A stretch of 64,000 nucleotides of DNA from Escherichia coli. GTDB taxonomy: Bacteria; Pseudomonadota; Gammaproteobacteria; Enterobacterales; Enterobacteriaceae. The stretch's first letter is position 1, and the number at the start of each line of letters is the position of its first letter. The position numbers were made by a program, and so were the translations under genes. The stretch is from the NCBI RefSeq assembly GCF_003991155.1, contig NZ_CP031293.1. One strand, written 5' to 3'. The notes beneath the pieces were generated by a model. The model ran no database searches and had not been told where the DNA came from. It was given only the letters and a program-made list of their open reading frames with translations. Positions 833 to 52,885 of this stretch are shown piece by piece.

Positions 833-3800
833 ATGCCTGAAGTAAATTGGAAAGTATTCAACGAACTGCCCGGTGCAGCAGATGTGAACTTCGAAAACCT
901 TTGCCGCGCTCTGGTACGCCGACACTATGGTCGTTTCGGTCGCTTTAAGCAACTCGCAAATCAGCCTGGGGTGGAGTTTCACCTCGAGCTGACGGAGCCT
1001 TGTGATCTCGGTGCGCCACCAGGTTGGATTGGTTGGCAATGCAAGTGGTATGAACTGGTGAATGGACAAGATTTGGGAGCCTCCCGCCGCAACAAGATCA
1101 TCGAAGGTATCGAAAAGACGCGTAAGCATGTCCCTGGAGTGACCAATTGGAAGCTTTGGACTCATCACACGTTAACAAAAGGTGATCAAGAGTGGTTTTT
1201 CGCGCTAGAGCAAGACCGCTTCCCAGAATTGAAGTTAGAACTGCTCACAGCTACGGATATCGAAGATCTTTTGGTCGGACCGGGAGCGCTTTTACGAGAA
1301 ACCTACTTTGGTGAACTGGTTCTAACTCCAGAGCTAATTGCTGAGCAGTATAAGCTTGCAGTGGCCCCATTTAAGAACCGCTACCAGCCAGATGTTCATG
1401 TAGCGGTGGGGGCTGAGGAGAATATATTCAGGCATCTGTGCAGCCAAAACGCATGGGAATCTCTGGAAGAACTCTCAAACGCTTTAAAAAAGAATCATAC
1501 GAGCATTGCTTCGGTTACTGAGCAACTCAAAACTGAGCTCAGGGCTGAAGTTGAATTACTCCTGGCCCGGGTTATTGGGTTGACTGAGTTTATTGATGGC
1601 TTACACGCGGCGCTCGGCAAAGGTGACTTTAACTCTGTATATCAAGCGTTGGTTTCAAATCCGCGTCAGCCGGTACGTTATGACAGGCTACTTTCGAAAT
1701 TGCGTGGAGCGCGCTTTGACGGGGCTCCGTTAACCGCTAATTTGGTTGCAGATATCCACGCGGTTTCGTCAGTTCTCCGCAGTCTGGAGCAATCGATTAG
1801 TGCTCGGGCGGTTGCTGTTCTTGCGGCGGCGGGGGAAGGTAAGTCTGAACTTGCAGTCAAGGTAACACAGCCAGAAGGGGCGTTCCTAGGGGGAATCCTC
1901 CTATTAGGCAAGAATCTTCATTCAGGCCAGGGGCTTGATGATCTCGTATCTGCCTTCAAGATTTCTGGGAGACCAGCAGAAAGTTTTGACCGCCTGATTG
2001 AGGCCGTAGATGCGGCAGGCCAGCGTGCAGGTAAACGCATACCTATTGTTATTGACGGTCTGAATGAGGCGGAAGATCCGAGAAATTGGAAGGATGAATT
2101 ATCCCGAGTGGATGAGCTTCTAAAGAATTTTCCTTATGTCTTGTTAGTTGTCACTCTTCGCAATGAATTCGCCCAGATGTGTCTGCCTGAGGGGTTTCCC
2201 CAAGTTGAACATAATGGGTTTCAGGAAGATCCGAAGACAGCATTTGACAAGTATTTTGAGTACTACAAGATCGATGCTACTGATGCGGATCTACCAGTCG
2301 AACTCTTGCAGCACCCCTTAACACTGAGAATTTTTTGCGAAGTAGCAAATTCTCCTCGTCAGCATATTGTCGGAGTGGAAGCATTGCCCCGTTCGCTTGC
2401 AAGCCTGTTCGAAGCTCACTTTAACAAGGTTGCAGCACGAGTCGCTGAGCTTTCACCGACGATGCATCGCATTTATCAAGATGACGTTCAGGATGCACTA
2501 CTAACGATCGCGGGTCTTCTTTGGGATAACAATGCGAGAAGTGTGGATTTTCAGGCTACACGGATGGCAGTTCGGGATATGGGGTGGGACGACAGTATTA
2601 TTCGTGCACTGGAGTCTGAAGGCATTCTCGTTCGGACTATTTCTCCAGAAGGTAGGCAAGGAGTTGCGTTTGCATACGACCTAATGGCCGGACATATGAT
2701 GGCGCGCAACCTGCTTATGAAGCCTGAACTGGTGCAATGGCTACAAAGCGATGAAGGGAACGCAAAATTTAAATCTCATGGACCTGATTCGCATACCTTC
2801 GCTTATGACGTATTACGGGCTCTGGTTGATCTGTATCCGCAACACTCTGGTAGGCGGCAGCTTTGGCAAGACTTGTCGGATGATATACTCGTTATGAACG
2901 CTCTGCTATTGACGACGCAATCGGATCCAAGATATATCGGGCGGGCTACTGTTGAACGATTTGCTCAAGCTATGCAGGAGTCGAAGCGGTTTGCACAACT
3001 TGCCTTCGAGAGACTACGGAGCACTAGGGCTGCGCTGGCACATCCGTTTGATATGAGCTTTTTGCATGATGTGCTAATGGCTATGTCCAACACTCAGCGC
3101 GATCTTTTTTGGTCAGAGTGGATTCGTCAGAAATCTGAACAAGTTAAAGACGACTTAAAATTCTTGTCGACGAGATGGAAATCGGGTCATCTGGATGAGC
3201 GTGAACTTCGAAGAGTTCGCTGGGTAATGTGGACACTGACGACGACATCCAGAGCTTTGCGGGATATGGCTACCAAAGCCCTGTATGAATTTGCCATCAG
3301 GCGGCCAGAAGAGTTTTTCCGGTTAGCGACGGAGACAATTGTAGTTTCAGACCCATATGTCCCCGAGCGAGTGTTCGCCGCAGCCTACGGTGCAGTCCTG
3401 ACCACTTGGTCGGATATCGATGCGGTAGAGTTACATGATGCGTTGCCACGGTTCGCTCGTGAGATTTACCAAACCATGTTTGCACCTGGCGCTACAGCCC
3501 CTACCTGGCATGCATTACATCAGCAGTACTGTTTGGGAATCATTGCCATTGCGAGGATGGTCGATCCAAATTGTTTTTCAGAGGACGAAGCTGTTTATCT
3601 TCTTCCGCCATTTAGCCATCTGCCTAACGTATTTGAAAGCATTCAACCGTACGATCCAGAGATGATTGGGCGAGCGGAGAGCGCAGCGATTCAAATGGAC
3701 TTTGGTAACTATACGATTGGTGGACTTATTCCAGACAGAGCGAACTACGATGACAGTAATCCGGAGTACCAACAGGTGTTGCAGGCCATTGTTTCTCGAA

Positions 3801-13186: not shown

Positions 13187-15521
13187 ATAACGGTGTAATC
13201 TCCCTCCTGCATTGTCGCCTTCGGGCACCCTTTGGCTTCATGGTCTGCAAGAAGCCCCTGATTTATCAGGATGACCAGCCCTTACTACCGGTACGACCTC
13301 CGCAATACCGGAACGCGAAAGCGTTTGAGGCTAAGAGTACATACACCCGAACGGCTTCATCGTCATTGCTTAACGGCAACAGTCTTCACCGGCTGAACGG
13401 CTTTTCTTTGCCGGAATTTCCCGACTGCCCCATACCCAGCTGAAAACAGCGCCCTTTACATGACGGGCTGCGGCCTGCATTGCCGTCAGGCTTTGCTGCC
13501 GCGTGACCGTCATTCTGCACCAGAAACGCAACGTTTACCCCCTGCACCAGATGAGGCGTCACTTTGGTCGCGCCAGCGAAAAAGCAAAGTGACGCCGTAC
13601 AACATACCGCCGCAAGCCGCGCCAGTTCTGGCCTGCGTCCTGTTTCCGCCGTCTGACATGCCCTTTGGGGCGCTGTCAGTCCAGAGTAAAGGAGAAAAAG
13701 ATCGATACCGAGGGGGGCACGACGCCCCGGAGATACCCCTGCTTCGTCAGGCAGTCTGTACCGCGTACAGCCTGAAACTCCCTAAACCTCAACAATCAGC
13801 CACTCCGGCGTGAAGGTATCGTTCTGGCGCAGCCAAAAAGCACACGCCGGAGACTGTTTGTTTTTTGTTGCAGGGGGTAGTTATGAGCAAATTAAGCAGT
13901 GAAATGAAGGCGCTGGCGAAAAAAGCAGGCGGTAGTTTCAGAACGGTGGACTACCGTATCCATGCCACGAAGCGGTTCAGTCAGCATTTACGCGAACTGA
14001 ATATTCAGATCCAGCGGGTGGAGCAGATCAAAGTTCGCCATATCGAATGCTATATTCAGGAGCGGCTGGAGCAGGATATTGGCCTGCGCACGCTGCAAAA
14101 CGAAATGGCGGCGCTGCGGGCCGTGCTGAGGCTGGCGGGACGCCGGCAGGTGGTGGAGCATCCGCGCCTGACCAATAAGGCGCTGGGGCTGTCAGGTGCT
14201 TCGCGCAACGGCACGCGTCGCGCCATCACGCCGGAACATTATGAAAAAGTGATGGAGAACGCCCGCGCACAGGATGCGGGGCTGGCGGCAGCGGTGGAGA
14301 TCGCGCGACTGATGGGATTACGCTCGCAGGAGGCGGTACAGAGTTCACAGTCGCTGAAAACGTGGCTGAAAGCCATTTCCCGCGGCGAAACCCGGCTGAA
14401 AGTGGTGTTTGGCACCAAAGGCGGGCGTCCGCGTTACACGACGCTCCTGGACGCTGGCGCAGTCAGGAAGGCGGTGGAAAACGCATTACCGATCGCCAGA
14501 CAGCGCAATGGCAGGCTGATCGACAAGCCAGACCTTAAAACGGCGCTGGAGAGCTGGCACAAACAGGCCATTAAGGCGGGGCTGAAAGGGGAATTTTCCC
14601 CGCACTCGCTGCGTTATGCGTGGGCGCAGGACGCGATCCGCCATTATCTGGCGCAGGGATTCAGCGAAAAGGAATCGCTGGCGCTGACGGCGACGGATCT
14701 GGGTCATGGCGACGGTCGCGGCCGCTGGGTGAAACAGGTGTACGGCTACCGCTGGAAGGAGGAATAACGGCTTTCATGAATGGCGCAAAATAGTACGTTA
14801 CTGCGTAACGACAGCGATTTATCGTACCCTCTGTACCGGATCTGGCGCAGGGGGCGAGCGGGTTTGTATTGTGAAAATATCGTTACAGCATGACGAATAA
14901 ATATCAATAGCTCAGATTTTCCTGCTGAACCAATGTAGCTCGCCGGAATATTATAGTGATTACCCGGTAATCACTCGAAACGATCCCGATTAATAGCTGG
15001 TGTTTCAATCGTTTTACCGATATTACAGGTACAGGGTCGGGAAATTTTAAAATGTAAACTCACCGAGGCATCACATTAATTCTGGCGCAGGATTATATCT
15101 GAATAATTCTCTCTGTGTTTTCCTGCATCCTGTGACATATATTGCATGGTCACAGAATGTCTCATGATTTTATAAAAAATGCTGCGACGGTTTTTGACAT
15201 CATAACCTGCTGCATATAGATTAATAATTTTCGGTGCTTCATGTTATTTTTTTGCGCTCTGTGATCGTTATCTGGTGGTGAAAATACAATCTGGTGCAGA
15301 CTGTCATGGTGCATTTCTGAATAAACTGGTTGCGCCAGAAAGGGAAAGGGCCATAAAGGTTAAGGGGCGATAAGGGTAACAGCGCCTGACCGGAAAGGGC
15401 CGAAAACCAAAGAGCCAGAAACTGGCGCAGTCCTGAATGTGTGAAGTGGCGAGACGCTGGCGCAGATAACCGATCTTCCGGGGCTGGTGCAGATTATTTC
15501 GTCTCTGTATATCTGGTGCAG
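13187..15521. repeat. dispersed array of at least 10 copies of the decamer TCTGG(C/T)GCAG
   Basis: Copies at 13187-13195 (inverted), 13823-13832, 14841-14850, 15081-15090, 15289-15298, 15330-15338 (inverted, degenerate), 15421-15430, 15456-15465, 15483-15492, 15512-15521; mostly in non-coding DNA flanking the integrase-family gene. Confidence 0.7.
13883..14767 (+). CDS. tyrosine-recombinase (phage integrase) family protein, short form
   Basis: C-terminal FSPHSLRYAWAQDAIRHYL...GRWVKQVYGY has the HxxR...H...Y pattern of tyrosine recombinase catalytic domains; AGGGGG Shine-Dalgarno precedes ATG 13883. Confidence 0.5.
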   Translation: MSKLSSEMKALAKKAGGSFRTVDYRIHATKRFSQHLRELNIQIQRVEQIKVRHIECYIQERLEQDIGLRTLQNEMAALRAVLRLAGRRQVVEHPRLTNKALGLSGASRNGTRRAITPEHYEKVMENARAQDAGLAAAVEIARLMGLRSQEAVQSSQSLKTWLKAISRGETRLKVVFGTKGGRPRYTTLLDAGAVRKAVENALPIARQRNGRLIDKPDLKTALESWHKQAIKAGLKGEFSPHSLRYAWAQDAIRHYLAQGFSEKESLALTATDLGHGDGRGRWVKQVYGYRWKEE

Positions 15522-45814: not shown

Positions 45815-48292
45815 CTACATTGCCATTAATATAAACATAGCCAATTCGTCATAACGAATTCCGTAGCGTCCACCTGCTTTTTTTACAAGAATCATATTTC
45901 CTGTTTTATATTGAGAATAAATTTTCTCACCTGTATCAGGATCTGTGCTCTCTTCAGTTATCACCTCTTCATCCCATACGTCTGGCCATTCATCGTAACA
46001 CCAAAAAGCATATTGCTCAGGATTTAAACCATGCTTTCTAAGAATATCTCCTACGGTTTGAGCGCCAACTCCAAAATGATACCTTGATAACTCCAATCCT
46101 TTAAAATTAATCGACTCATTAAACCTGAACTTGCATATAATTCCCTTTATTTCCAGCGCAGCATCACGCTCTGCCTGAGTAATGTCATATATTGTTTTAA
46201 GTGTTTCATCTGATGTGCTTATAGTCCCGGATGCAGAATAAATCTGAGCCCATCTAAATGATGGTGCACCAAGAGATTTGCTGTTATCAATAATTGGTGA
46301 AAAATTACCTTTAATGGCAATATTTCCAGAGTCGCCGAATATATTAATAACTGTAGAGTCATCACCATGGTTTTTTACGCTTAAGTTTCTTGATAAAATA
46401 TTTATATCTTTGTTATACCCACTAACATTAATCCATCTTTTACCATCAATGTGATACCCGTAAATATTTCCGTTTGATTGTTCGTCAGGTGACTCTCTAA
46501 GAACAATAGCATCTACTCCAGACGACCATTGTATTTTTGTATCTGTAGGCCTCCAGTTCTTTATAATGAACGAACCATCAGTAAACTCCGTTTTTATTTG
46601 TCTATTGTCTACAAATGCGTCTCTTGGTTTAAACTCACTTGTGTTAACGCTGCTCTGAAGATCAGAAGCAAAAAATCTAAGATTTCCTGTATAACCCTGA
46701 GTCTCGGTCAGGTTATACGCAATCATAATTCCATTTTCAAACTCAGATGATGTTATTTTAACATCACGGCAATCACCAAAAATGCAATTTCCTTTATCAA
46801 ATGTTGTTTGAGCTTTGAATTTATCAAACCTTAAATTACGAACAGGGAAACCATCAACCTCTAATGCAAAGGATGCATGAAGGCCAAAGTATTCTGATGG
46901 CTTACCTGATGTATGATCAAGAGTAGTGGCTACTGTATTCTCAAAAACAGTCCCGCTAAAATTATTACCAATTGACGGAAACCTGATTACACTTATTGTA
47001 CCTTGTATTTCAGGAGAAATACCAGATAGTGTGATGTTAGTTCCATCAAATGATGCATCTGAATACGTATATACTGATTCACTGCCAGCAATTTTAAACT
47101 GTTTAACTGAAGTTATTCTCATCGACTTTTTATGTTTAAATGTCACTGAGCTTTCAGTATTACTTACAAGATCAATCTGAGGGCTATTCCTTATCGCGAT
47201 TCCTGACTGGACATAAACGTTATTAAAGTGCGTTTTTTCAGGATTTCCCTTCATTGAAAGGCTCCCGTCATTTTCTGTCAGTAGTAGTCCTTTTACCCTC
47301 CAATAGCCGACAATCTGTACGTTATCAATAACTGAATCACAGCTATCGTATACATGCAACCCTATATCCCAGTTATCACCCAATGAATAAGAATCAGGGT
47401 TATTGTATCCTTCAATACCATTTTTACTTACCATTATTCTCAGATTGCGTAACTGTGATGCCCTGTTGATACTAACAGCTACGCTCATGGCTTTTGGTGT
47501 AGCAGGAGTAACACCTACAGAATCTTCATTCGTAAACTCAGTGAACTTACAAGATATCCCTTCAACAATTTTAACCGGTCTTTCATTAGAGATGTTAAAA
47601 AAATATTTGTTTTTTTCTCCATCACCAGTAAATACAAGATGGGTTCCTTTACTCCAACTTTTTAATAATCTTTCAGGCGCTGGTCTATATGTATCCCAAT
47701 AATCAATGCCAGATCCAACCAGTGAACACCCCTCAGGAATGTTAATATTCTTCTTGATGATGCATATTCCTTCCGGAATTGTTATAACCGACCTTCCAGA
47801 GTTTAAAGCTTTAATAAAAGCATCTGAATCATCTGTTTCCCCATCTATTTTTGCTCCCCACCCTCTAACATCTCCACAATCTCTCCATCGTGCCATCTGC
47901 AACTCAGGATATTTTTTAGCGCCATCTGGATCTTCTAATTGCTGCCGTAGCTGATCGGGGTCATACTTCAGCACATTAGGAAAATAGAACTGCTGCGCAC
48001 CATATGCATCATAAACAGCCATAGAATGGCCTTGCACAGTTACAAACTTGGCTATTTGCCCGTTATATACCGGGTAACCAGCAGCGTTAATGATGATTGG
48101 TTGCGAAACAGGAACGTGAGAGCCATCTTCGTTCTCCACATAAACCTGAATCTGGTTTTCAGGATTTACAGGGTCAGTGTCAATTTTACCGATATAAATT
48201 TTGCCATTGGCAACCGCTTTAAAAGAACGTGCCATAGTGAAGAGTTGAGAAGGCATACTCACTACAACATTGGCATTTATCGAATCTGTCAT
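45815..48292 (-). CDS. tailspike protein (P22 gp9-like head-binding N-terminus, divergent receptor-binding body, C-terminal chaperone-like domain)
   Basis: First ~115 aa resemble the P22 tailspike head-binding domain ([37 protein letters not shown]...[13 protein letters not shown]...VLKYDPDQ); remainder unrelated. Confidence 0.8.
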
Positions 48293-48391: not shown

Positions 48392-49321
48392 TCAGTAGTT
48401 ATGTACTGAAGGAGGTAATTCTTTATTCTTAAGTCTCATCCATGCGGAAAGATTCGTTGGTCCGTCTGGCTCATTGATATCAACATCTCGTGTGTGATTG
48501 ATTAAAACGTCTCTCGCCATTCCGATAACATACGAGAACTCATGACCATAGTCGTAGCATCTGCCGGAATAGTTCGATTGAATTTGTTTTAATGCCGGAT
48601 ACAGTTCGCGGAATAACGCCTGTGAGCGGTTGGCATAATCCCATAACCATACAAGGCTGTTTGCTTCTTTTGCAGAAAGCTCGTTGGTTTTCTTCTCTTG
48701 TTTGCCAATGAACTCACCTTCAAGCGGAACGCGAGCAGCAAGTGACAGTGCTTCGGTAAACTGCTCATCACTGATTTCTTTGTACGAACATCCAAAATGG
48801 GATTTCAGTGACGACCACATGGTGATCATCGCCTTCGCCTGTTTTTCTTTTGGCAGAGACTGACCGCGACTCATGACGAGTTGTTTAATGGCTTCCTGCT
48901 GTTCAGTGGTGATTTTACCCGGCAACGCCTTTTTAGCTTTGCGTGGGTTAACTACATGGCCTTTAGTCCAGTACTCGTAGAGCACATCGTCACACTCTTC
49001 CTGATACTGGATTACCTTGTCGCGGATTTCAGGGCGGACTTTGTTTGGACTGATGGTTTGCAGCCAGCCAGCAAGTTTGCGAAGTGCCAAACAAATAATC
49101 TCACGGCACTGTTCATCACCAGGAAGCTGCATTGTGATTTTCACAATGGAGGTTTTAAACCGTTGCTTTATTTTCGTAAACTGTGAAGCCCAATCCATAC
49201 CCATACCTTCAACGATAGGTTTCATTGGGGTGTACGGCTCACCGTTGTGATTGACGACATAAAGCTCTGCGCCGTGGAATGGCACGTTGATAGTAGATAC
49301 TGCTGTTGCTATACTTTTCAT
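48392..49321 (-). CDS. ant: phage antirepressor Ant
   Basis: 309 aa downstream of arc in the immI arrangement. Confidence 0.7.
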
Positions 49322-49387
49322 GTCAGTTTTTCCTCAAAATTTACTGGCGATTTAAGCCCGAGCTACTCGCAATAGCTTGGGCTTTAC

Positions 49388-49534
49388 TCATTCTGGACAA
49401 ACAATTCCATCCTTAGCTACTGACTCCTTTAGTCTCCTCAATACCTCATTACTGAACGACCGATCATCCTTTTTCGCGGACTGCTCCAAAGCCTTTTCCA
49501 GCCATTCTGGCATCCTTAATGTCTTAACTTTCAT
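49388..49534 (-). CDS. arc: Arc-like ribbon-helix-helix repressor
   Basis: MKVKTLRMPEWLEKALEQSAKKDDRSFSNEVLRRLKESV... Arc/MetJ-type fold, upstream of ant. Confidence 0.7.
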   Translation of the reverse strand: MKVKTLRMPEWLEKALEQSAKKDDRSFSNEVLRRLKESVAKDGIVCPE

Positions 49535-49646
49535 TTTTGCTCCTTTGCTCCTTTGTATGTGGTACGCATACATAGTATTTAGGTACGCATTGATAGTCAA
49601 TAGATACCTACATATCCTGTGGTAAATAATTATTCAGGATGCGCCG

Positions 49647-49898
49647 ATGTCTGATCGTAAGTACAAAAACCCTCAAGTGAATCTGAGGCTTCCTGTAGAG
49701 ATAAAGGAACGTCTTATTGAGCTGGCTGAGGCTAATTCTCGTTCATTAAATGCTGAGATGGTAGCAGCACTTGAGGCATGGACTGAAAAAAATAAACATA
49801 TTCAAGCACTAGATATTGCAACTATAGCATCGCGGTTGATAGAGCTTGAGCATGAGGTTGAGAAGTTAAAATGTATGCATGGCAACGGTGAAAAATGA
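49647..49898 (+). CDS. mnt: Mnt-like maintenance repressor (ribbon-helix-helix)
   Basis: 83 aa; NPQVNLRLPVEIKERLIELAEANSRSLNAEMVAAL; divergent from arc-ant. Confidence 0.75.
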   Translation: MSDRKYKNPQVNLRLPVEIKERLIELAEANSRSLNAEMVAALEAWTEKNKHIQALDIATIASRLIELEHEVEKLKCMHGNGEK

Positions 49899-50209
49899 AA
49901 CGCATCGCTATTTTGTTAATATTGTTCTTCTCTACAATAGTTTGCGCCAAACAAAAATCAGATAATGGCGATCTTAAAGGCCTGCAAGAACTCATGATAA
50001 CTTCGAAATTTGCTGGCATGTGCGGCACAATCAAACAAATGGCAACATTTCAAGAATCAACAAAAATGCCTGGCGGAGATGAGTTCTTACAGCGTTTTCT
50101 GACCACAGAGCAAGCAAGACTTGGAATGAATCCACAGGAGTTTCTTGAAGCATGCCAGAAGTCAATTTCAGCTTATACCAATTATTACAATCTAACTTCT
50201 GATAAATAA
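49895..50209 (+). CDS. small exported protein (signal peptide), mnt-coupled prophage moron
   Basis: ATG overlaps the mnt stop (ATGA at 49895-49898); MKRIAILLILFFSTIVCA signal peptide; 104 aa. Confidence 0.55.
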   Translation: MKRIAILLILFFSTIVCAKQKSDNGDLKGLQELMITSKFAGMCGTIKQMATFQESTKMPGGDEFLQRFLTTEQARLGMNPQEFLEACQKSISAYTNYYNLTSDK

Positions 50210-50234: not shown

Positions 50235-50720
50235 ATGAAAAAATCACTATTAATTATCCCGCTTCTGCTGGCTGGATGCGCAAAAGTAAGTGACTACCAA
50301 GCAAGTTGCGAACAACGCTATCCAAAGCTTAGTGATATGGCTAATTGCCTTGATGCCAGCGTGAAGAACGACTCACGCATGGCATCAGCACCAACACCTA
50401 AGCTGTATGTCCTTGCTGCGAAGATGCTCGGGCAAGGTGTCGATGAAGGCAAGATAAGTGACGCACAGGCAAGACTTGAGCTTCAGAATCTTTATGTTCA
50501 ATTACAAAGCCAAGAACAAGCCCAACAAATAGCGCAAAGCCAAGCATTCCAGCAGGCTTTATTGAATTATCAGGCTGTAAACACAATGCAAGCGATCGAG
50601 CAAAAAGCGCGCCAGCCTGTTATAACTCAACCTTACCCAACACGCGTTGACACATATACAAACTGCAATTCAGGATTTGGAAACACCGTCACATGCAACA
50701 GTAGCAGCAACATTAGATAA
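50235..50720 (+). CDS. lipoprotein, prophage moron at the P22 sieA position
   Basis: MKKSLLIIPLLLAGC lipobox; Gln-rich central region; 161 aa. Confidence 0.6.
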   Translation: MKKSLLIIPLLLAGCAKVSDYQASCEQRYPKLSDMANCLDASVKNDSRMASAPTPKLYVLAAKMLGQGVDEGKISDAQARLELQNLYVQLQSQEQAQQIAQSQAFQQALLNYQAVNTMQAIEQKARQPVITQPYPTRVDTYTNCNSGFGNTVTCNSSSNIR

Positions 50721-50722
50721 AG

Positions 50723-52885
50723 CTATTCATATTCATTCATACCGCTTAACGAGGCGACAATACCAGCTCTCGACAAGCGATTGAATTCATCGCTACCAAT
50801 AGCATCGCGTATTGCTTTTACGGCGGCTTTATTTGCCATAAATCTGCGTTCCGCCGCCGCTAATGCTTCTTTACTTCCGCCAGCTCTTACTGCTTTCGTG
50901 GCTTCCTGAACTGCTTTCTCTATCGCATATCGGCCGCTACGCGTGGTGGCAATTTTAGATACAGCACCTTTTAACCCGGCGCCAACTAAAGCACCTGCGG
51001 CAGCGCCTGCAATGCCCCCTCCTGCTCCACCAACAATGGCACCTGATGTTGAGTTGGCAATTGCATTTAACACTGTTGATGTGACGTTGGATAAACCGGC
51101 ATCCAGATCGCGTAGTACATTGGCAGTTCTCCCTGTTCTTTCAATATACTGCTGAGGCTTCACTGCTGCTCTTGCAAGAGTGCCATATGCATCAGCAATT
51201 CTTCCGAGTTCTGAGGAATATCTGCTAATGGCTTTTACATTTTGTGGGGTAAGTATCCCTGCGATATGGTTAATTCCTGCTGCATCAGCTTTGCCACCAC
51301 GTACACCATGCGAGATAGCATCTTGCAACATTGATGATATAGCAGGAACACGCTCTGATTCTGGCAGCGCGCGGATCATAGAATGGAACCCAGCAGGACC
51401 ATTAAGACCTTTAGCTGACGATGATTGAAGGGATTTTACTCCATTCGTAATCAGTGCATCTGTTGCCAAATCACGCCCGAAAACAGACTCTGCACTCTCT
51501 TGTGCTGATAACCTCGCTTTAGACAGATCATTAGCTTTCTGCCAGTCATCAAGAAATCCGCCGTTTTCCGCCATTGTGCGCATATCATCAGTAATTGCCC
51601 GGCGTATTTCCCCTGCTCTCCTTGCCGCATTTGCCTCTCCGCTACGCTTATATTTTTGCTCCGCATCAGCAAATTTCGCTCTCCATGCTTTCATGCCATC
51701 AAATGTTACCCCACCTTGATTGTTTGCCTGAACAAACTGTTTCATTTCAGGAGTAAGCGGTATGCCAGCAGATCGCTCTGCCTGAATAACGGCATTACCA
51801 TTTAGCATTCTTGCTTTTTGATTTGGCATTGTTGACCGCACGTCATCCCATGCCGCGCGCTCGGCATCCTTCATCTGATCAAGATTTTGAAGAATCCTTT
51901 GTTTTATAGCCGCACTTTTTTCTGATGCCGTTCCAGATGCGGCCCCAAATTCATCAAGGTTTCGACTTAACTTTGATGATATTTCGTTAAATGCTGCCTG
52001 ATGGGCGTCCTGAACAATTCCTGGTGTTGATGCCAATGCGCCTTCGGCTTGTGCAATTCCACGACTTCCAGATCGCATTCCTGGTGTTAATGCGTTTATA
52101 TCAATTCCAGCAGACTCAGCCGCTTTTGCTACATCTTCGGACACATTAGCGGCCTGACTGGCAATTGACTGACGCCCAGCACCTGACTTTGCCATCCTGG
52201 AAACATCATTAGCAGAATTCAGTGCTGCACCACCAAGAGCCTGTGAAACCCTTGGCGCAATAACGCGCCCGACACCTGAAAGAACGCCTTGAGCACCAAT
52301 ATTGATACCACCGTTAATGGCAGCATTTTGTGCAAAGTCGCCCTCCTGATTTGCAGCATCAGCAAGAGAACCTGCAATCATGTTTCCTGCGGAACCGATA
52401 TCTCCAGCGAGCTTTGCTGGCGCTCCAGCAGCTTTTGCCGCTGTGCCAATTGGCAGGAGATACCCACCAATTGTTTCACCGGCTTGCGCATAAGGGTCTG
52501 TCGGTCGATCGACTGGACGATAGACATCATCCAAAACCTTTGGGCCACCAAGCCCCTGGCTGATTGCATTAATCAGACTTGCGCCACCCTGCAATACGTC
52601 AAATGGTATGTTTACCAGACCACGACCAGCCTGTTCTGCAATTTGCCCTGCACTTTGACCACCTGTGAGCCAATCACCAGCTTGTTGCATCAATGATGGT
52701 TCTTCTTTCTGCTGCTGTGGCGGAGGGTATGCTGCATAAAACTGATCTCTTGCTTCAGCCCATTTGTCACCAGCCTTAGGGGCAACAACCTCATCAAAAT
52801 ATTGCGCTTGAGCCTGTGCTTTCTGTTCTTCAGTTAACGCCTGATACTGTGGAGAAGCGATAACATCTTTCCATGCTTTAGCCAT
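50723..52885 (-). CDS. ejection (injection) protein, P22 gp16-like
   Basis: 720 aa, Gly/Ala-rich; gene order after gp20. Confidence 0.65.

Follow-up and report, generated by a model that had tools for sequence, protein, structure and literature searches.

In phage P22, the immI unit is flanked by gene 16 and the tailspike gene, with mnt transcribed divergently from arc-ant across a gap of 90 bp and with sar situated at the arc-ant junction. The two promoters of this unit are superimposed in such a way that each -10 hexamer abuts the -35 hexamer of the other and the transcription starts are approximately 37 bp apart, and two ribbon-helix-helix (RHH) repressors of the Arc/Mnt family act there through two symmetric elements, one at the start of Pant and one in the core that the promoters share: the O(mnt) palindrome spans roughly +1 to +17 of Pant, and the 21-bp O(arc) represses both Pant and Pmnt (PMC2724298, PMC11016777). 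The boxes of RHH operators are read by the β-sheet of a repressor dimer, with binding of a higher order (PMC2724298). An Mnt-like RHH gene with palindromes of its own at the equivalent position is also seen in L/ST64T, N7/Emek, 611R6, ES2 and Sf101, of which N7/Emek retain the P22 promoter geometry and L/ST64T are without arc-ant. No experimental work was found in the literature on the immI variant typified by CUS-3 and SEN22, which is the one considered here.

The window (the whole 64-kb stretch of E. coli DNA analyzed) contains a P22-like (Lederbergvirus) prophage, in which an intergenic gap at 49535-49646 separates an arc-like coding sequence on the minus strand (49388-49534; 48 aa, beginning MKVKTLRMPEW, its ATG being the complement of 49532-34) from an mnt-like one on the plus strand (49647-49898; 83 aa, an RHH domain followed by a C-terminal helix). 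The arc-like gene is the first of an arc-ant operon and lies directly upstream of ant on the same strand, 66 bp away; ant (48392-49321, minus strand) encodes an antirepressor of 309 aa, the regulated target of the system (Pfam P22_AR_N, 7e-45; P22_AR_C, 5e-30). The module is flanked by a tailspike gene (45815-48292, minus strand) and by a gp16-family gene (50723-52885, minus strand), so that the order tailspike, ant, arc-like, divergent mnt-like, gp16-like is that of P22, and two small ORFs encoding secreted or lipoprotein-like products follow the mnt-like gene. The sar position also appears to be kept: the plus strand at 49322-49388, antisense to the arc-ant junction and to the ribosome-binding site of ant, gives a full-length match to Rfam RF00262 (29.3 bits, E=0.0035, under the gathering score of 43), with a promoter-like element (TTGATA-17-TATACT, 49287-49315) and a terminator hairpin (49349-49389) in the expected places. 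An earlier sequence-only reading had proposed a gap of about 110 bp between divergent arc and mnt genes and had taken it for their control region; the exact coordinates make it 112 bp, similar in size to that of P22, and both the arrangement and the nature of the flanking genes agree with that proposal. As argued below, the region probably controls an immI ("ant moron") module of the CUS-3/SEN22 type, with both RHH repressors binding in its core, most likely in the arrangement set out further on.

That both flanking genes encode RHH proteins of the Arc/Mnt type is supported by several comparisons. The Arc-like protein scores 25.1 bits against Pfam Arc (PF03869; cutoff 20.4; E 1.6e-5), matches the Arc-like repressor family phrog_228 at 6e-7 and is 31% identical to P22 Arc over 39 aa (BLASTP, E 6e-6); with its 48 aa, compared to 53 aa in P22 Arc, it has almost no N-terminal arm. 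The Mnt-like protein scores 40.2 bits against the same Pfam model (cutoff 20.4; E 3.1e-10) and matches phrog_795, the family holding P22 Mnt, at 9e-24 over residues 1-80, as well as the structure 1mnt at 3.4e-5. It is 43% identical to phage L Mnt over residues 8-78; the BLASTP alignment with P22 Mnt is limited to residues 8-39, whereas in a multiple alignment of Mnt sequences the AERL...LK..Y.K motifs run through to P22 Mnt over the full length, with a deletion of six residues that shortens the C-terminal region relative to P22 (in P22 Mnt, we take residues of about 52-82 to be the helical tetramerization domain). The AF2 model of the Mnt-like protein (mean pLDDT 77) has an extended N-terminus and helices at 17-29, 34-48 and 57-79, and its top Foldseek matches are the Arc-operator complex 1par, Arc F10V, AmrZ and CopG (probability 0.98, the E-values being weak owing to the small size of the domain). 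Among relatives, the Mnt N-terminal arm and strand, YK[NH]PQVNLRLP, are nearly invariant (without exception in the loci retrieved with Mnt; in the set of 75 contigs carrying the first dyad described below, a few loci show a K-to-R change in the arm or an L-to-I change in the strand), the Arc strand comes in three types (KVKTLRMP, SPSSVRFP and EPVSVRMP) that have the DNA core in common, and both genes are intact and under purifying selection.

Two candidate promoters, each matching the sigma-70 consensus at 9/12 positions in a consensus scan, are placed back to back in the gap. Pant (49572-49600, minus strand), which would drive arc-ant, has a -35 TTGACT (49600-49595) and a -10 TACTAT (49577-49572), and Pmnt (49590-49618, plus strand), which would drive mnt and the two ORFs downstream, has a -35 TTGATA (49590-95) and a -10 TATCCT (49613-18), both with a 17-bp spacer; the -35 hexamers overlap by 1 bp within the palindrome TTGATAGTCAA. 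The predicted starts, near 49565 for Pant and near 49625 for Pmnt, are thus about 60 bp apart, unlike those of P22, and a P22-like superimposed layout was rejected for the window, there being no acceptable -10 or -35 hexamer at the positions it requires. Variation of the hexamers among relatives is of the kind typical of promoters and argues for both predictions. The Pant -35 is invariant and the -35 hexamers overall are nearly so; the Pant -10 appears as TACTAT, TAATAT or CACTAT, with A2 and T6 kept, except for two loci (L006, L041) in which TGCTAT has lost A2 and retained T6. The Pmnt -10 appears as TATCCT, TATTCT, TACTAT, TACTCT, TAATCT, TATAGT, TAACAT or TACCAT, always conforming to TAnnnT, and its 17-bp spacing is departed from in just two lineages (16 and 18 bp).

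Both promoters fall within a core of 65 bp (49554-49618), which also holds the candidate operators and whose weighted conservation across 59 distinct sequences (roughly 60 relatives, effective n 17) is 0.90, as opposed to 0.36 and 0.55 in the leaders of arc and mnt, respectively, and 0.47-0.49 at third codon positions. The 42 core positions lying outside the hexamers are conserved at 0.88, which is as high as second codon positions (0.83-0.92), and they include the region around the start of Pant and the 17-bp spacers of both promoters, i.e., positions that promoters do not require; the core stays unchanged even where Mnt identity is down to 51% and other sequence has taken the place of the flanks. 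Since the non-hexamer positions are as conserved as the hexamers, repressor sites are implied, and the constraint on the core probably reflects repressor binding; since comparison of the relatives showed no conserved stretch elsewhere in the gap, any operators in it must sit at the positions pointed out by the sequence-only reading. Conservation, and not symmetry, is in our judgment the decisive support for this control region.

The symmetry itself is less telling. The partial dyads that had been reported from the sequence are both present. Dyad 1, TATGTGGTACGCATACATA, was originally placed at 49556-49574 (5-bp arms TATGT/ACATA, center 49565) and is better described in the register TGTATG-N7-CATACA (spacer tggtacg; 49554-49572, center 49563), overlapping the predicted start of Pant and the end of its -10 hexamer; the right arm of the dyad, GCATACATA, is conserved at 0.95 and its more variable left arm at 0.85, the latter being replaced, with a different spacing, in L062-66 and L069. 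Dyad 2, AGGTACGCATTGATAGTCAATAGATACCT (49581-49609), has 10 of 14 pairs symmetric about a center at 49595, which is the very point of the -35 hexamer overlap, and extends to TAGGTA-N19-TACCTA with an inner ATTGA-N3-TCAAT (N3 being tag) at 49580-49610. Its inner half is nothing other than the two overlapping, opposed -35 hexamers, so that the case for an operator rests solely on the outer arms, (T)AGGTA/TACCT(A); its spacer positions are conserved at 0.87-0.89, and its symmetry is better in L063/67/68 (TACGnnTTGAtagTCAAnnCGTA). In 2000 dinucleotide-preserving shuffles of the 112-bp gap, P was 0.037 for dyad 1, 0.058 for dyad 2 and 0.0125 for both jointly; dyad symmetry alone is thus only modest evidence, each dyad being near chance level. 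The earlier suggestion that these dyads would suit Arc and Mnt operators therefore holds insofar as a conserved core lies where they are, and is weakened by their individual closeness to chance, by the share of dyad 2 owed to the -35 hexamers and by a phased repeat that had been missed. The accompanying remark that their sequences differ from the P22 operators was confirmed by direct comparison: with BK000583 14793-14844 as the P22 reference control region, neither O(mnt) nor O(arc) (AGGTCCACGGTGGACCT, ATGATAGAAGCACTCTACTAT) occurs anywhere in the 64-kb window at ≤3 mismatches, and a direct reading gives only 6-bp resemblances (TGATAG; AGGTAC vs. AGGTCC). The palindromes of L/ST64T, N7/Emek, 611R6, ES2 and Sf101 are likewise unrelated in sequence to those of the window, and distinct palindromes in each immI class show, as judged from the sequences, repressors and operators apparently diversifying together.

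By position, dyad 1 is likely the Mnt site and dyad 2 likely the Arc site, an assignment drawn from analogy with P22, where the start of Pant is covered by O(mnt) and the core shared by the two promoters contains O(arc): relative to the Pant start, dyad 1 extends from about -7 to about +12, and dyad 2, although about 29-31 bp long and hence longer than the O(arc) of P22, sits on the axis common to both promoters. Leftward transcription from Pant would then produce arc-ant and rightward transcription from Pmnt would produce mnt and the two small ORFs. Mnt would most likely occupy dyad 1 (49554-49574), covering the edge of the Pant -10 and the start while leaving Pmnt free, so that in a lysogen arc-ant would be shut off, the antirepressor would be silent and mnt expression would continue; Arc would most likely bind dyad 2 (49580-49610), centered on the fused -35 hexamers with both spacers occupied, and, accumulating after infection or derepression, would turn down both promoters, with the sar-like antisense RNA (49322-49388) possibly adding post-transcriptional control over ant. 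Natural variation was of no help as a guide to which protein binds which site and was set aside for that purpose: the two dyads and the window-type Mnt were never separated among 79 loci retrieved with Mnt or 75 IMG/VR contigs retrieved with dyad 1, loci with extra mnt copies (L028, L050) are wholly without the core, and no DNA change follows the three Arc strand types, so that there is no covariation support for the assignment. Nor could the Arc site be located by way of distant Arc-like homologues (ValSw3-3, 611R6, ES2, S.Kent), which have unrelated dyads upstream.

The most significant internal feature of the gap is in fact neither dyad but a repeat of 21 bp (lag-21 autocorrelation, z=4.0), which P22 does not have: this phased repeat of GGTACGCA (49561-49611, plus strand) has GGTACGCAT at 49561 and 49582 and, at 49603, a third copy that is degenerate (GATACCTAC), the first two 21-nt units being 76% identical and the (G/A)TAC cores lying 21 bp apart at 49562-65, 49583-86 and 49604-07. 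In four lineages, a direct third copy at the exact 21-bp phase takes the place of the outer right arm of dyad 2 (GGTACGCA in L083/84, which are the same contigs as L118/132, in L134/155 and in L149/151; the variant GGTATGCA in L106/138), and the two dyads may accordingly not be the true anatomy of the sites. Instead, three (G/A)TAC sites two helical turns apart on one face of the DNA could each take one symmetric RHH dimer; a tetramer of Mnt might, for instance, span sites 1 and 2 and block Pant alone, and Arc might occupy sites 2 and 3, on either side of the fused -35 hexamers, and block both promoters. This is a possible reading, though on the whole a doubtful one: the palindromic GTAC core fits the direct variants and the inverted variant of the window alike, and RTAC/RTAY cores are retained where the flanking arms change, but the cooperating dimers known for Arc and Mnt are spaced by about one helical turn and not by two (PMC2724298), site 3 of the window is only a 5/8 match as a direct copy, and dyad 1 has perfect 6-bp arms (TGTATG/CATACA) that this anatomy leaves unexplained. 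A heptad periodicity of TnnnTAG/GTACGCA units, as in the omega/ParG operators, had also been suspected and was dismissed as chance (lag 7, z=0.2; lag 14, z=-1.3). An elaboration that we regard as decidedly speculative has a three-site GTAC array around the promoters fused at their -35 hexamers, with Mnt and Arc reading overlapping subsets of one motif; no less speculatively, Mnt would act in it as a tetramer whose C-terminal domain is shortened and whose arm and strand resemble those of Arc, and Arc as a minimal protein of 48 aa. Were it true, competition or cooperation between two different RHH proteins would determine whether the shutdown is confined to Pant or extends to both promoters. Generic RHH operators (e.g., the TAGA boxes of Arc, the 13-bp element of CopG, the met-boxes of MetJ) are likewise short repeated boxes of 4-8 bp over a promoter; to our knowledge, GTAC/RTAC, TGTATG and TAGGTA boxes and a 21-bp phase have not been described for generic RHH proteins, and we know of no such array geometry or shared-site logic for Arc and Mnt.

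The assignment could also be reversed, with Mnt on dyad 2 (repressing Pant and autoregulating Pmnt) and Arc on dyad 1 (negative autoregulation of arc-ant), as the resemblance of the Mnt arm and strand to P22 Arc allows: KNPQVNLRLP is nearly identical to P22 Arc (KMPQFNLRWP) and to the Arc F10V mutant (1baz/1bdv) and is closer to P22 Arc than to P22 Mnt (DPHFNFRMP), the strand residues being Q-N-R where P22 Mnt has H-N-R. P22 Arc recognizes inverted TAGA boxes (PMC2724298), the sole TAGA of the core and most of its TAG boxes lie in or beside dyad 2 (GATAGTC, AATAGAT and TAGGTA on both arms), and N7/Emek pair a Q-N-R Mnt with O(arc)-like sites. The strand Gln, however, is present in the Mnt homologues of both phage L and N7/Emek and is common where such a homologue goes with a palindrome resembling O(mnt) at the start of Pant (e.g., PQFNLRLP and AAGACCACGGTGGTCTT in phage L), relatives sharing the identical Mnt strand do not conserve the TAGA box (ACACGTACC, ATACATACC, ATAGGTACG), and a lysogen can more easily keep up Mnt synthesis with Mnt off its own promoter, which is the logic of P22 (PMC11016777); a specificity swap read from the strand is weakened by these points and is an improbable, minority explanation. 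Far less credible is the notion that the dyads are by-products of mirrored promoters and a TA/TG-rich composition, with conservation due to the promoters only and the repressors binding elsewhere or inactive. The inner arms of dyad 2 are indeed -35 hexamers, its outermost matches are -10 hexamers, single-dyad P values are 0.04-0.06, and the gap has a lag-4 compositional periodicity (z=3.4); such an origin leaves unaccounted for the conservation of the 42 non-hexamer positions in both spacers and around the Pant start, set within an otherwise unconserved gap, and the maintenance of both repressor genes. Least probable of all, and hardly to be entertained, is that dyad 1 is a nucleic-acid hairpin (a terminator or a 5' stem-loop) and not a protein site. 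A terminator scan does flag 49554-49572 on the plus strand with 8 pairs, and arm spacings of 0, 4 and 7 nt among distant relatives would be tolerable for a hairpin, yet no T-run follows (TAGTATTTAG), there is no upstream plus-strand transcript to terminate there given the sar terminator, the predicted Pant start falls inside the stem, which would leave the arc-ant mRNA without the 5' arm, and single-arm substitutions are uncompensated in L009, L039, L041 and L071. Mnt on dyad 1 and Arc on dyad 2 is the reading preferred here.

The module is found in 146 of the 5426 complete E. coli genomes (about 2.7%), including ETEC strains, as well as in coliphage CUS-3 (CP000711, a K1-capsule phage), Salmonella phage SEN22 (NC_028696) and 75-79 IMG/VR contigs. 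In CUS-3 and SEN22, the control core is nearly base-for-base identical to that of the window and Mnt is 87-93% identical, and Arc is 96% identical in SEN22 and 58% in CUS-3. The latter phage, which also carries a second, P22-type mnt, has been said to have no arc (PMC2629481), and its annotation lacks the arc-like ORF, which sits within a "boundary sequence" feature; the small arc gene of CUS-3 is one that the literature has overlooked. The control region described here is an uncharacterized sequence variant of a classic phage circuit, real, conserved and ordinary, and challenges no current understanding. As the immI switch decides antirepressor production, it affects the frequency of lysogeny, prophage cross-induction and superinfection immunity, and operators defined for this variant would extend the Arc/Mnt model of β-sheet DNA recognition by a new specificity class, help explain the stacking of several mnt classes in related prophages and make immunity groups predictable from sequence.

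Two smaller features of the gap lie outside the proposed operators. A third dyad, ATCCTG (49614-19)/CAGGAT (49635-40), would pair the Pmnt -10 with the mnt Shine-Dalgarno sequence and was considered as a conserved anti-SD RNA hairpin, for which no support was obtained: variants fold similarly and own-arm pairing beats cross-pairing (permutation P 1e-4, uncorrected for phylogeny), but RNAalifold gives no consensus structure, the covariation score was equalled or exceeded by 149 of 500 shuffles, and the 5' arm is upstream of the predicted Pmnt start. At the opposite end, an 8-bp tandem duplication (TTTGCTCC twice, 49536-49551) copies the arc Shine-Dalgarno sequence (minus strand) and is private to the window, as none of the fetched relatives carries it and 37 of them, among which is the closest E. 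coli genome, TW10573, have a single copy.

The 112-bp intergenic gap at 49535-49646 probably holds a repressor-controlled divergent promoter core. It lies near 49.5 kb of the window, at the end of the late operon in a P22-like prophage, where the minus strand carries the tailspike gene (45815-48292), the antirepressor gene ant (48392-49321; Pfam P22_AR_N/C domains) and a 48-aa arc-like ORF (49388-49534), and the plus strand an 83-aa mnt-like ORF (49647-49898), beyond which two small ORFs precede a gp16-family ejection-protein gene. Both small proteins exceed the curated cutoff of the Pfam Arc domain (20.4 bits), scoring 25.1 (48 aa) and 40.2 bits (83 aa). The larger is, judging by homology, a full-length Mnt homologue: residues 1-80 match phrog_795, the family with P22 Mnt (E 9e-24), the solved Mnt N-terminal domain 1mnt is matched as well (3.4e-5), residues 8-78 are 43% identical to phage L Mnt, and the alignment with P22 Mnt runs end to end except that 6 residues are missing from the C-terminal helix. 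As expected, its AlphaFold2 model (mean pLDDT 77) begins with an extended stretch, followed by two helices and then a long helix at the C-terminus, with the Arc-operator complex, AmrZ and CopG as top structural matches. The smaller protein would be a minimal Arc (31% identity to P22 Arc across 39 residues; phrog_228). Given these matches, the sequence-only reading was therefore right in its gene calls and coordinates, which had Arc and Mnt homologues flanking the gap.

A consensus scan called two promoters: Pmnt on the plus strand (-35 TTGATA 49590-95, 17 bp, -10 TATCCT 49613-18) and Pant on the minus strand (-35 TTGACT 49600-49595, 17 bp, -10 TACTAT 49577-72), with predicted starts at ~49625 (mnt) and ~49565 (arc-ant). 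Both calls seem to find support in the relatives, whose -35 block TTGATAGTCAA is near-invariant, and whose -10 variants (rightward TATCCT, TATTCT, TACTAT, TACTCT, TAATCT, TATAGT, TAACAT and TACCAT, spaced at 17 bp except in one lineage with 16 and one with 18 bp; leftward TACTAT, TAATAT, CACTAT and, in two loci, TGCTAT) keep the TAnnnT frame, TGCTAT being the exception that keeps the final T only. From the hexamer positions and this pattern, the predicted promoters would thus stand back to back, with 1 bp (49595) shared between their -35 hexamers.

Both dyad strings quoted earlier are indeed present (49556-49574 and 49581-49609), the best registers being TGTATG-N7-CATACA, centred at 49563, for dyad 1 and TAGGTA-N19-TACCTA plus ATTGA-N3-TCAAT, centred at 49595, for dyad 2. 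Against 2000 dinucleotide-preserving shuffles, P was 0.037 for dyad 1, 0.058 for dyad 2 and 0.0125 jointly, which is suggestive of non-randomness rather than compelling. A stronger signal than either dyad, absent from the earlier reading, is the direct repeat GGTACGCAT at 49561 and 49582, opening two 21-nt units with 76% identity to each other (lag-21 autocorrelation z=4.0); a heptad periodicity was unsupported by the autocorrelation of the gap. Since the inner half of dyad 2 (ATTGA/TCAAT) is the mirrored -35 hexamers, only its outer arms, located in the two spacers, count as evidence of a protein site.

Salmonella phage SEN22 (84% DNA identity) and coliphage CUS-3 (90% identity from 49506 onward) share this module, as do 146 of the 5426 complete E. 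coli genomes, TW10573 being the closest to the window (98.5% identical); a protein-guided scan of IMG/VR gave 79 loci, whose Mnt proteins range in identity between 100% and 51%, and a DNA scan with dyad 1 gave 75 contigs. Across 59 distinct aligned sequences (effective n 17), weighted conservation was 0.90 for the core (49554-49618), 0.88 for its 42 positions outside the promoter hexamers, 0.83-0.92 and 0.47-0.49 for second and third codon positions of arc and mnt, 0.36 for the arc leader and 0.55 for the mnt leader, so that the core reads as a sharply bounded phylogenetic footprint. No conserved sequence was found elsewhere in the gap in this alignment, so candidate operators, if any, sit within the region where they had been sought. 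The claim that the dyads are operators stood in part: the conserved core and the presence of the dyads speak for it, whereas the -35 content of dyad 2 and the modest shuffle probabilities speak against it.

According to the curated P22 record, Pant (14793-14821) and Pmnt (14798-14826) are thus superimposed in that phage, with O(arc) (14798-14818) in the common spacer and O(mnt) (14822-14844) over the Pant start. The predicted geometry here is different, a superimposed arrangement being ruled out by the lack of acceptable hexamers, and neither P22 operator has a match in the 64-kb window at up to 3 mismatches, which bears out the earlier remark that these sequences differ from those of P22. Despite this, the P22 regulatory logic would map cleanly onto the window: dyad 1 spans ~-7 to +12 of predicted Pant and leaves Pmnt free, as befits the role of Mnt in P22, and dyad 2 has its centre on the shared axis of the two predicted promoters and fills both spacers, as befits that of Arc, which represses Pant and Pmnt in P22 (PMC2724298; PMC11016777). 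Opposite the ant translation start, at the arc-ant junction where P22 has sar, lies a candidate sar-like antisense RNA (49322-49388, plus strand; Rfam RF00262 full length, E 0.0035, but at 29.3 bits short of the gathering score of 43) with a promoter-like site (TG-extended TTGATA-17-TATACT, 49287-49315) and a terminator-like hairpin (49349-49389).

Within this overall reading, the assignment that pairs dyad 1 with Mnt and dyad 2 with Arc has about an even chance of being correct. Dyad 1, dyad 2 and window-type Mnt were never seen separated among the compared loci, and in prophages stacking extra mnt copies the core is entirely absent. The Mnt arm and strand, YK[NH]PQVNLRLP, are near-invariant in every relative recovered, even where overall identity falls to 51% (in the dyad-1 scan, a few loci show arm K replaced by R or strand L by I); for the protein at the Arc position, the strand comes in three or more types (KVKTLRMP, SPSSVRFP, EPVSVRMP), and no DNA change tracks them among the compared loci. 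A swap of specificities is suggested by the window Mnt arm and strand (YKNPQVNLRLP, residues 1-16, 49647-49694), nearer to P22 Arc (SKMPQFNLRWP) than to P22 Mnt (DDPHFNFRMP) and strikingly like the Arc F10V mutant (1baz), whose strand Val is identical; however, the Gln also occurs in the Mnt homologues of phage L (PQFNLRLP, palindrome AAGACCACGGTGGTCTT) and N7/Emek, and the core's single TAGA box is not conserved in relatives. The assignment of sites to proteins therefore rests on positional analogy with P22.

The main rival, which we hold to be rather unlikely, takes three RTAC-centred sites (49562-65, 49583-86, 49604-07) as the true anatomy. The right arm of dyad 2 is GGTACGCA in relative loci L083/84 (same contigs as L118/132), L134/155 and L149/151 and GGTATGCA in L106/138, giving three direct copies in exact 21-bp phase, and, the GTAC core being palindromic, such sites fit the inverted variant of the window and the direct variants alike. 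The phased sites differ from the preferred two-dyad reading in site anatomy; the circuit function is the same. A terminator or RNA hairpin is an unlikely role for dyad 1, given that it has no T-run, that the predicted start lies within the stem and that arm changes are uncompensated. A third dyad, ATCCTG (49614-19, Pmnt -10) with CAGGAT (49635-40, mnt Shine-Dalgarno), whose complementarity reappears among relatives with other sequences, was rejected: it has neither an alignable consensus structure nor significant covariation, and as an RNA element its 5' arm would lie upstream of the predicted mnt start.

In the most distant loci (L062, L064-L066 and L069, aligned to 49554-49575), other sequence stands in place of the left half of dyad 1 and the right half GCATACATA is kept, with new palindromes of other spacing (abutting TATG/CATA, ATACGTAT-N6-ATACGTAT and TGGTATG-N4-CATACCA); the Pant -10 appears poor in L062 and L069. 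The arc leader of the window has an 8-bp tandem duplication (TTTGCTCC twice, 49536-49551), which doubles the arc Shine-Dalgarno (AAGGAGCA, minus strand) and makes the Pant leader 8 nt longer; it was found in none of the fetched relatives, 37 of which, TW10573 included, have a single copy.

The ant moron is highly variable, and only its P22 version has been studied (PMC2629481; PMC8022706); our literature search found no experimental work on this immI variant, and the window core represents a genuine and conserved specificity class, as yet uncharacterised, within a textbook circuit. A 2008 comparison held that CUS-3 lacks arc and controls ant in some other way (PMC2629481). Contrary to that statement, CUS-3 (CP000711) does in fact carry an Arc-like ORF, unannotated, of 46 aa (MKVKTLRMPEKLEK..., ~1392-1529, minus strand), inside the 'bsq2 boundary sequence' feature and with the same MKVKTLRMP strand as in the window. 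In related prophages, mnt is present in two or three tandem copies that belong to differing specificity classes: L028 (1244-2036; 611R6-like, window-type and P22-type), L050 (1244-1752) and CUS-3 itself (1635-2164; window-type and P22-type). The absence of a cognate operator in cis suggests that the extra copies repress Pant of other, incoming immI types.

Downstream, the mnt stop TGA (49896-98) overlaps the ATG (49895-97) of a 104-aa ORF (49895-50209, plus) with an apparent signal peptide (phrog_19844), followed by a 161-aa lipoprotein-like ORF (50235-50720, plus; phrog_6067), both families being of unknown function. The two fill the slot held by sieA in P22 and are candidate exclusion or conversion genes; in the lysogen, Pmnt probably drives their expression.
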